Assembly (NCBI RefSeq): GCF_055900595.2 | Contig: NZ_CM148325.1 | Reading direction: 5' to 3' (one strand) | DNA length: 64,000 bases | Shown: piece after piece, positions 18,453-19,033 of the stretch | Numbering within the stretch: the stretch's first letter is position 1 | How the letters are laid out: the number at the start of each line of letters is the position of its first letter | Notes under the pieces: generated by a model | Databases searched by the model: none | Seen by the model: the letters and a program-made list of their open reading frames with translations, nothing else | What the model was told of the DNA's origin: nothing | Made by a program: the position numbers and the translations under genes

Positions 18453-19033
18453 ACGCGCGCCTCGCATTCGCCCCCTTGTTGTCCTTTTCGCATCGATTAA
18501 TACGGTGAAGAGGGGATCTCAATTACTGCATAAATATGATGAGCAGGCTGCTCATCCAGAAAGCTTCCAGCGGATTTCCAACTTATCGGGAAAGCTGATA
18601 CAGGTCAAATGGCAAGCTTATTGGTACAGAAATGTGCTTTAGCGCAAAATTCTTTATTAATTTATTGAAATTAAAAAGGATTTGTTAATTAAGTTGAAAA
18701 GAGGCGTCGTTAGGGAAACAGTCAATTCCTGACTGTCATAAAGGCGTGTTAACCCTTATCCTGCCTTGAACTGACGAGAAAGGCAGTATTTTATACTGCA
18801 TTAATTGGTAATGACGTTTCATGCTACTGTTTTTGCCTAAAATCCATAAGGAGATAAAAAAATCTGACACAAGATAAGCAAAAGTGATTTATGTGATTAT
18901 GAATGAAATTTCGGTAATTTTGATTGATTATGCAATTGATAAAAGCAGGCTGGGACGATTGATCCAGGTCATCGCCGAATTGAGCTAAAAATGGCAGGCT
19001 TTGGCCTCTTTTCAAGGCGCGGTCTATCAGATT

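Follow-up and report, generated by a model that had tools for sequence, protein, structure and literature searches.

The region considered here lies in a window of 64,000 nucleotides (contig NZ_CM148325.1 of NCBI RefSeq assembly GCF_055900595.2), which is Escherichia coli DNA in reverse complement with respect to K-12. It separates two divergent genes. On the minus strand lies gltB (13899-18359), encoding the large subunit of glutamate synthase and beginning with MLYDKSLERDNC; on the plus strand lies yhcC, or mnmL (19034-19963), assigned from its open reading frame and the RefSeq annotation to the TIGR01212 radical SAM proteins. The gltB control region thus sits between gltB and yhcC, with arcB and ArcZ past yhcC. 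ArcZ was located with Rfam at 22400-22507 on the minus strand, directly beyond arcB as in K-12, and the order mtgA-elbB-ArcZ-arcB-yhcC / gltB-gltD is the same in the window and in K-12. The yhcC annotation and the gltB start were both read from a RefSeq genome whose identity to the window is 100% over the stretches compared, and in strain Z0117EC0005 (100% over the stretches compared) the annotated neighbours are arcB, yhcC, gltB and gltD. A 701-base region around the interval 18468-19033 is contained in 5416 of 5426 complete E. coli genomes, in 11 of them at an identity of at least 99% and in several at 100%. This is, almost certainly, the yhcC(mnmL)-gltB divergent intergenic region of E. coli, orthologous to the gltBDF control region of K-12, and nothing contradicts the orthology.

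Homologous loci were retrieved from a species-representative genome collection by means of a degenerate pattern for the GltB N-terminus, which returned 89 DNA stretches. The yhcC gene is divergent from gltB in 78 of these, its N-terminus MQLQKLVNMFGGDL is kept in 78 species, and in these species, from Escherichia to Yersinia, the gap between the two genes measures 663-716 bp.

The interval 18468-19033 (566 bp) reaches from the first ATG of the longest gltB open reading frame (18467, minus strand) to the yhcC ATG (19034, plus strand). The earlier note had set the gltB boundary at 18467; the real start codon lies 108 nt further in, at 18359, where the conserved start MLYDK is found. Since RefSeq starts GltB at 18359 and a stop codon lies upstream in most species, the true gap is 674 bp long (18360-19033). 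Instead of being leader RNA, 18360-18467 could owe its conservation to coding sequence, if GltB were extended at its N-terminus (the 1517/1522-aa form). The window, K-12 and other Escherichia do have an uninterrupted frame leading from 18467 into gltB, and older K-12 annotations start at the ATG corresponding to 18452, as does the Term-seq table of PMC7815308. However, in most of the 78 other species any in-frame extension is closed by a stop codon situated 7 codons before the MLYDK ATG, and the variation in this stretch follows base-pairing and not codon periodicity. The upstream ATG at 18467 is situated within the motif GAGGGCGA(C)AUGCGAGG; many species have it in another frame or have no ATG there, and the open reading frames that begin there span 4 to 48 codons across species. 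Neither a GltB extension nor a conserved leader peptide or upstream ORF, with a frame or length kept across species, was therefore found; we reject such readings and regard the extension as very improbable, and the stretch is treated below as part of a 5′ leader.

The interval as a whole has a GC content of 38.5%, compared with 51.3% for the window and 56-57% for both flanking genes. It had been described as some 560 bp of AT-rich non-coding sequence, which holds on average; strong AT-richness is confined to a core at 18576-18950 (33.6% GC, among the lowest 0.4% of all 375-bp windows). The gltB-proximal 216 nt (18360-18575) are 56% GC and belong to the transcribed leader, and do not fit a description of the whole stretch as AT-rich promoter DNA; about one third of the 674-bp gap is 5′ leader, not promoter. 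The A/T tracts that had been noticed are present, with four A or T runs of at least 5 bases in the interval. The short palindromes are there too, TTAATTAA among them at 18685-18692, but as a class they are not enriched over shuffled sequence: six-mer palindromes number 10 in the interval, where shuffles give 10.5 ± 3.1, and eight-mer palindromes number 2, where shuffles give 2.6 ± 1.6. The TTAATTAA palindrome itself falls in a hypervariable patch described below and is missing in K-12, where the sequence is CTTAAAGATA.

Conservation across species is concentrated in islands, namely the ArgR boxes, a block at -311..-293 relative to the gltB transcription start, the Lrp sites, the right half of the Crp site and the promoter. 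Two larger conserved blocks stand beside them: the yhcC-proximal 80 bp and, above all, -38..+110. A low GC content relative to the neighbours, 33.6% in the core, could be taken to indicate horizontally acquired or selfish DNA, such as an island remnant or an insertion sequence scar silenced by nucleoid proteins. However, the position, orientation and length of the gap are kept in 78 species, the conserved islands coincide with known factor sites, the region is near-universal among the complete E. coli genomes counted above, and the segment contains neither repeats nor a transposase, so that an origin of this kind is barely credible. The same low standing is given to the idea that the gap encodes one or more small proteins; it contains three open reading frames of 44-66 codons, but only 3-6 of 80 aligned sequences keep these frames intact, and small proteins are rejected. 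This region is already known, and its K-12 counterpart is among the best-mapped multi-regulator promoters of E. coli. The K-12 gltBDF promoter region (PgltB) has reportedly been studied by Ernsting in 1993, by Wiese in 1997 and by Paul in 2001 and 2007.

When aligned with the characterised regulatory region of K-12, the window matches without a gap over 714 columns, with 27 mismatches. Published site coordinates were transferred to the window by anchoring them on the Crp-site primer and the footprint positions of Paul et al. 2007 (PMC1784095), and the mapped coordinates were verified by extracting the sequence. In that study the Crp site is placed at -76..-55 (centre -65.5 relative to the transcription start), the IHF footprint at -113..-75, the Lrp sites at centres of -152, -215 and -246, and the ArgR footprint at -361..-318. 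The mutagenic primer gltcrp1 marks the Crp site as AATTTTGCGCTAAAGCACATTT, and a spacing of 21 bp between the Crp site and the -35 element is stated (PMC1784095). The primer fixes the Crp site and hence sets the gltB start (+1) at window position 18575 (±1), and the 21-bp spacing identifies the -35 element as TTGACC at 18603-18608. The start position carries an uncertainty of ±1 nt from the published numbering, and the primer-based fragment ends in PMC1784095 disagree with it by 1 nt.

An independent consensus scan of the gap arrives at the same coordinates. Its best ARG boxes fall at -361..-344 and -340..-323, the first starting exactly at the published footprint start of -361, and its best Lrp match (-223..-209), best IHF match (-95..-83) and Crp core (-73..-58) correspond to Lrp site 2, the IHF core and the Crp site. 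All the sites published for ArgR, Lrp, IHF and Crp lie on matching sequence, as does the promoter, and this supports the multi-factor gltB promoter architecture proposed in the earlier note: what was flagged is real and was correctly interpreted. Binding of these proteins and regulation in the window strain are what we infer from homology to K-12. Three "terminators" returned by a separate scan for sigma-70 and terminator consensus sequences were discarded as uninformative, as they include the P1 leader hairpin and Lrp site 2.

From the yhcC side, the first of these elements is a predicted ArgR operator at 18893-18936, within which the boxes occupy 18919-18936 and 18898-18915. Each ARG box has 3 mismatches to the consensus; the operator carries 2 substitutions relative to K-12 and is kept across genera. 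Next comes the conserved block CACTTTTGCTTATCTTGTG at 18868-18886 (-311..-293), noted from cross-species conservation with no factor assigned. It may resemble a GadE box, and we know of no published site there. Three predicted Lrp sites follow. Site 3 (18811-18831, centre -246) is identical to K-12 and contains CAAAAACAGTAG, which is kept across genera. Site 2 (18784-18798, centre about -215) reads CAGTATAAAATACTG, with 1-2 mismatches to the Lrp consensus. There are three or four changes relative to K-12 within or adjoining it, and three lineage-specific substitutions turn it into a perfect 7-bp inverted repeat, GCAGTAT-AAA-ATACTGC, at an unchanged consensus score. Site 1 (18718-18736, centre -152) is the inverted repeat ACAGTCA-GGAAT-TGACTGT, identical to K-12 and kept across genera.

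The predicted IHF footprint covers 18650-18688 (-113..-75) and differs from K-12 at 8 of 39 positions. Within this published footprint we assigned a core by consensus, TTTCAATAAATTA at 18658-18670 (-95..-83), which has 1 mismatch to WATCAANNNNTTR; K-12 reads TTTCAGTCATTTA, with 2 mismatches. The predicted Crp site at 18630-18651 (-76..-55), defined by primer gltcrp1, is identical to K-12. The core promoter (18575-18608, minus strand) comprises the -35 element, the -10 region GATAAGTT at 18580-18587 and a start A at 18575; it is identical to K-12 and nearly invariant in 78 species. An FNR-like sequence, TTGACCTGTATCAG, found in the consensus scan, overlaps the gltB -35 element. A simple sigma-70 consensus scan did not flag the real gltB promoter, which is consistent with its weak -10 region and its dependence on activators. 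Relative to K-12, the Crp site and the core promoter are free of mismatches, as are Lrp sites 1 and 3, and the 216-nt leader has only 2.

The differences from K-12 are clustered. Fourteen of the 27 mismatches fall within 45 columns, -130..-86 (scan permutation p < 1e-5), including 8 substitutions inside the IHF footprint, and the divergence of this patch from K-12 reaches 31%. The gap outside the patch differs at 2.1% of sites, and four-fold degenerate sites differ at 8.7% in yhcC and arcB and at 16% in gltB. The patch belongs to a segment between the proximal Lrp site and the IHF core, 18661-18722 (-147..-86), that is varied in sequence and conserved in length. Among 9 E. coli sequences compared base by base, this segment is variable at many positions, several of them with three alleles, and contains one 1-bp indel and no other, whereas -85..+216 shows only a few singleton differences. 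The 81-bp allele of the window recurs at an identity of at least 95% in only 16 of 5415 genomes, and the window therefore carries a rare spacer allele. The K-12 spacer allele is matched at 99% or more in 1341 genomes, at 95-99% in 1957, at 90-95% in 664 and at 80-90% in 1452.

At the IHF core, variation within the species falls on the four degenerate NNNN positions of WATCAANNNNTTR (-89..-86), which supports the assignment of the core. The window additionally has A for G at -90, absent from the 8 other E. coli alleles sampled, so that its IHF core matches the consensus at 8 of 9 positions instead of 7 of 9. The spacer DNA is most simply read as constrained in length and helical phase but not in sequence; this would account for its being hypervariable and yet almost free of indels. 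In keeping with this, expression fell 3-7-fold when 5 bp were inserted between the promoter and the proximal Lrp site, and did not when the insertion was 10 bp long, as summarised for Wiese 1997 in PMC1784095.

With the IHF footprint changed at 8 of 39 positions and Lrp site 2 changed as well, the quantitative behaviour of the promoter may differ from that of K-12. One could go further and propose that the rare spacer/IHF patch and the symmetrised Lrp site 2 alter the affinity for IHF or Lrp and so reset gltBD expression. The improved IHF core, unseen in the 8 other alleles, the three lineage-specific changes that complete the inverted repeat of Lrp site 2, a patch divergence above that of four-fold sites, and the coexistence of many haplotypes within E. 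coli would all agree with such a functional variant. On the other hand, most of the changes lie at degenerate IHF positions or in spacer that is unconserved between genera too, Lrp site 2 scores as it does in K-12, the base-by-base inspection covered 9 alleles only, and unconstrained AT-rich DNA together with recombination could yield the same picture. We therefore consider a functional variant rather unlikely, and keep to the reading of a spacer constrained in length and phase.

In contrast to the spacer, the gltB 5′ leader (216 nt, 18360-18575, minus strand) is the most conserved part of the gap across more than 70 enterobacterial species, and is more conserved than any protein-binding site. 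It carries a Shine-Dalgarno sequence, GGGGGAGG, at 18368-18375. A structure proposed from a 71-sequence alignment pairs 94% of the alignment cells concerned; when assessed on these same sequences, 19 pairs change on both sides, compared with 6.8 ± 1.6 in column shuffles (none of 500 reaches 19) and with 7-10 when the structure is slid along the alignment as a control. The covarying helices are P1, P4 and P5. In P1 (18556-18538), 6 of 7 pairs covary, and of 26 informative versions of the hairpin 25 fold more stably on the gltB-sense strand. P4 encloses a hairpin of variable length that holds the old K-12 "start codon", and an 18-nt hairpin found in other genera is missing from the Escherichia leader.

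The leader has other features as well. Its invariant 5′ end (+2..+16), UCCGCUGGAAGCUUU, can pair with an equally invariant AGAGCCUGGGGA that runs into the Shine-Dalgarno sequence (RNAalifold). This pairing is kept in 99% and never varies, so that covariation neither supports nor refutes it. A further element, AGAGGGCGA, pairs alternatively with an upstream CCCUCU (P2a) or a downstream UCGCC...CUCU (P2b), two pairings between which covariation in the 71-sequence alignment does not discriminate. Finally, Term-seq in K-12 has recorded an RNA 3′ end at 3354657, corresponding to window position 18427 (+149), just past the hairpin that contains P4 (PMC7815308); it was classed as ORF-internal because the old gltB start codon was used in that study. 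The pairing of UCCGCUGGAAGCUUU with AGAGCCUGGGGA, the exclusive partners of AGAGGGCGA and the hairpin with its +149 end together suggest a switch, in which the leader would alternate between a translatable read-through form and a closed or terminated one. Candidate signals might be a nitrogen or carbon metabolite, a protein or an sRNA.

In these respects the gltB leader resembles the long structured leaders through which translation or premature termination is controlled in other enterobacterial genes, such as the pgaA leader with CsrA and Rho (PMC4052769) and riboswitch leaders: it is long, has covarying helices, a 5′ end able to pair with the Shine-Dalgarno sequence and mutually exclusive pairings, and has an in vivo 3′ end within it. 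Unlike them, it has no known ligand, protein or sRNA partner and no Rfam family, and, by minimum free energy, it folds no more stably than shuffled sequence does (z = +0.72). ArcZ was the only Rfam hit in 17500-23500; for 18300-19100, permissive thresholds returned only two matches, far below the gathering score, and neither is credible. Searches for trans pairing of the leader with ArcZ, or with the candidate sRNA described below, gave nothing above shuffles. A preprint on OmrA/B describes lower GltB and GltD levels, with no site in the leader. A literature search found no paper that describes a gltB leader element. To our knowledge, the regulation of gltB has for decades been studied at the level of transcription alone. 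A regulatory role of the leader RNA is plausible but unproven, and it is possible, though we hold this tentatively, that the 216-nt leader is an undescribed cis-regulatory RNA of Enterobacteriaceae and Yersiniaceae that would control glutamate synthase post-transcriptionally.

The second of the larger conserved blocks lies at the opposite end of the gap. The very high conservation of this block and of the leader is left unaccounted for by the explanation of the gap from homology to K-12, and the earlier note missed both the structured leader and a candidate sRNA at the yhcC end. The transcription start of yhcC was transferred from K-12 position 3354077 (PMC7967276, Supplementary Table S1) through the gapless alignment to window position 19007 on the plus strand; no yhcC promoter could be recognised there by eye. 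On the minus strand, 18915-19020 is the orthologue of G0-10702, a candidate sRNA designated "yhcC-gltB" (K-12 3354064-3354169; PMC7967276), with 2 mismatches to K-12 in 106 nt. This stretch coincides with the second most conserved block across species.

According to PMC7967276, G0-10702 lies on the gltB-sense strand, stems from Raghavan 2011 and was dropped from EcoCyc in 2019. The candidate is defended in PMC7967276, where its transcription start is backed by a re-analysis of dRNA-seq data and where it is described as overlapping the 5′ end of yhcC (start 3354077). According to a passage cited in PMC4070566, its abundance reportedly falls in an hfq mutant and it is without an intrinsic terminator. 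Term-seq has also recorded an RNA 3′ end at K-12 3354141 (PMC7815308), which maps to position 18943 of the window. The orthologue in the window resembles the K-12 candidate of Raghavan et al. 2011 in its position, in being divergent from yhcC and in overlapping the yhcC 5′ end. It has no canonical intrinsic terminator.

To this the comparison adds a hairpin, GCCUU-GAAAAG-AGGC (19004-19018, minus strand), which is formed by the first 15 nt of the RNA and covaries across genera: its stem is wholly different between genera with the pairing kept, in 44 distinct versions. On account of G-U pairs, 37 of the 44 versions are more stable on the gltB-sense strand (p = 2e-5). Further in lies a highly conserved inverted repeat, GGCGAT-GACCTGGATCA-ATCGYC (18952-18978), with an FNR-like TTGATCCAGGTCAT and a GATC inside it; the consensus scan places an FNR match with 2 mismatches at 18959-18972. 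The strand test for this repeat is ambiguous, slightly favouring the yhcC sense, and it could be either an RNA hairpin or a protein-binding site. The whole RNA has a folding z-score of +0.96 against shuffles, and thus no thermodynamic support, and the sole signal in a pairing search was the trivial antisense overlap with the yhcC 5′ end. In this strain G0-10702 may function as an sRNA.

The operon downstream had been described as gltBD only, with gltF apparently absent, and this is borne out. In the RefSeq genome that matches the window at 100% over the stretches compared, yhcG comes 183 bp after gltD, a direct junction that leaves no three-gene gltB-gltD-gltF operon. The window thus differs from K-12 in lacking gltF and the yhcADEF fimbrial genes. 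This layout is not particular to the window strain: the gltD-yhcG junction (12150-12600) is covered to at least 80% in 3137 of 5426 complete E. coli genomes, so that gltBD-only is the majority state (58%) and the gltF-yhcADEF cluster of K-12 an accessory one. The absence of gltF concerns operon content and not the promoter. An antisense candidate, ECS018 (Shinhara 2011), does not belong to the yhcC-gltB gap and maps to the gltD-gltF spacer.

By analogy with K-12, the elements of the gap would work together as follows. RNA polymerase would bind the weak sigma-70 gltB promoter, where it gives no defined footprint on its own. Lrp would occupy its three sites 150-250 bp upstream, and IHF, by bending the DNA at about -89, would enable the Lrp-DNA complex to reach the polymerase, for a 30-40-fold activation. 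Crp-cAMP at -65.5 and ArgR at -361..-318 would each lower expression by a factor of about two. The stretch from the proximal Lrp site to the IHF core would serve as a spacer of fixed length and phase. Transcription would then yield the 216-nt leader ahead of the gltB start at 18359, and the yhcC end would hold the yhcC start site together with the candidate sRNA G0-10702 on the opposite strand. In this arrangement the promoter would resemble other IHF-bend promoters, such as ilvPG as it is cited in Paul 2007 (PMC1784095), in which an upstream activator is delivered to a weak promoter in a phase-dependent manner. It differs from the ilvPG type in that the activator is Lrp, acting from three sites more than 150 bp upstream and in a leucine-insensitive manner.

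As originally flagged, the finding carries little weight, as it re-identifies a known promoter in another strain. Three features of the gap, which keeps its length of about 670 bp from Escherichia to Yersinia, add to its value: a spacer that is hypervariable in sequence but fixed in length, a leader that is conserved and structured, and an sRNA candidate, once discarded, that comparison between genera favours. A spacer that is free in sequence and fixed in length over thousands of genomes represents a natural experiment on activation from a distance. G0-10702, although discarded, gains comparative support from its covarying 5′ hairpin. And if the leader does act as a regulatory RNA, the main ammonia-assimilation enzyme would be under post-transcriptional control as well, which would truly add to what is known.

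The most highly conserved element of the 674-bp intergenic region between the divergent genes gltB and yhcC (18360-19033) is the gltB 5′ leader (18360-18575, minus strand), which across more than 70 enterobacterial species is more conserved than every transcription-factor site in the gap, and which has covarying helices. The 5′ end of the leader is invariant and is complementary to the Shine-Dalgarno region. A Term-seq 3′ end has been published for K-12 inside the leader, at +149 (18427) relative to the gltB transcription start (PMC7815308). No Rfam family was found for the leader, and no description of the element was found in the literature. 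Separately, the leader of Escherichia species lacks an 18-nt hairpin (GCAAGUCCUCAAACUUGU) at about 18500-18506 (+70 to +76), which is present at this point in other genera.

Among gltB loci from species-representative genomes, the length of the whole gap stays within 663-716 bp across 78 species, ranging from Escherichia to Yersinia, although large stretches of it are without sequence conservation. The spacer that separates Lrp site 1 from the IHF core (18661-18722) is hypervariable within E. coli: several of its positions have three alleles and many haplotypes of it exist, yet it is nearly indel-free; the allele carried by the window is rare (16 of 5415 genomes). Further upstream, a block (CACTTTTGCTTATCTTGTG) at 18868-18886 (-311 to -293 relative to the gltB transcription start) shows cross-genus conservation, and we found no factor assigned to it in the papers examined on gltB control. 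Two FNR-like sequences, each with two mismatches to TTGAT-N4-ATCAA, are likewise conserved across species: one overlaps the gltB -35 element (18595-18608), and the second falls within the conserved block next to yhcC (18959-18972). A predicted, unconfirmed Fnr site has been mentioned for the gltB region (PMC1784095).

At the yhcC end, 18915-19020 (minus strand) matches the K-12 candidate sRNA G0-10702. The 5′ hairpin of this orthologue (19004-19018) covaries across genera, with the gltB-sense strand favoured. Hfq dependence has been reported for the candidate, as cited in PMC4070566; EcoCyc removed G0-10702 in 2019 (PMC7967276).

As in K-12, the ArcZ sRNA (22400-22507, minus strand; Rfam RF00081, 118.7 bits, full length) converges on the end of arcB. 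On the gltB side, yhcG directly follows gltD (junction at 12285-12467), and no gltF-yhcADEF cluster lies between them. Of 5426 complete E. coli genomes, 3137 have this gltD-yhcG junction, so that the arrangement seen in K-12 is the less common one. Finally, 16% of four-fold degenerate sites in gltB (13899-18359) differ from K-12, about twice the 8.7% in the adjacent yhcC and arcB, which suggests that the gltB segment is of different ancestry, possibly via recombination.
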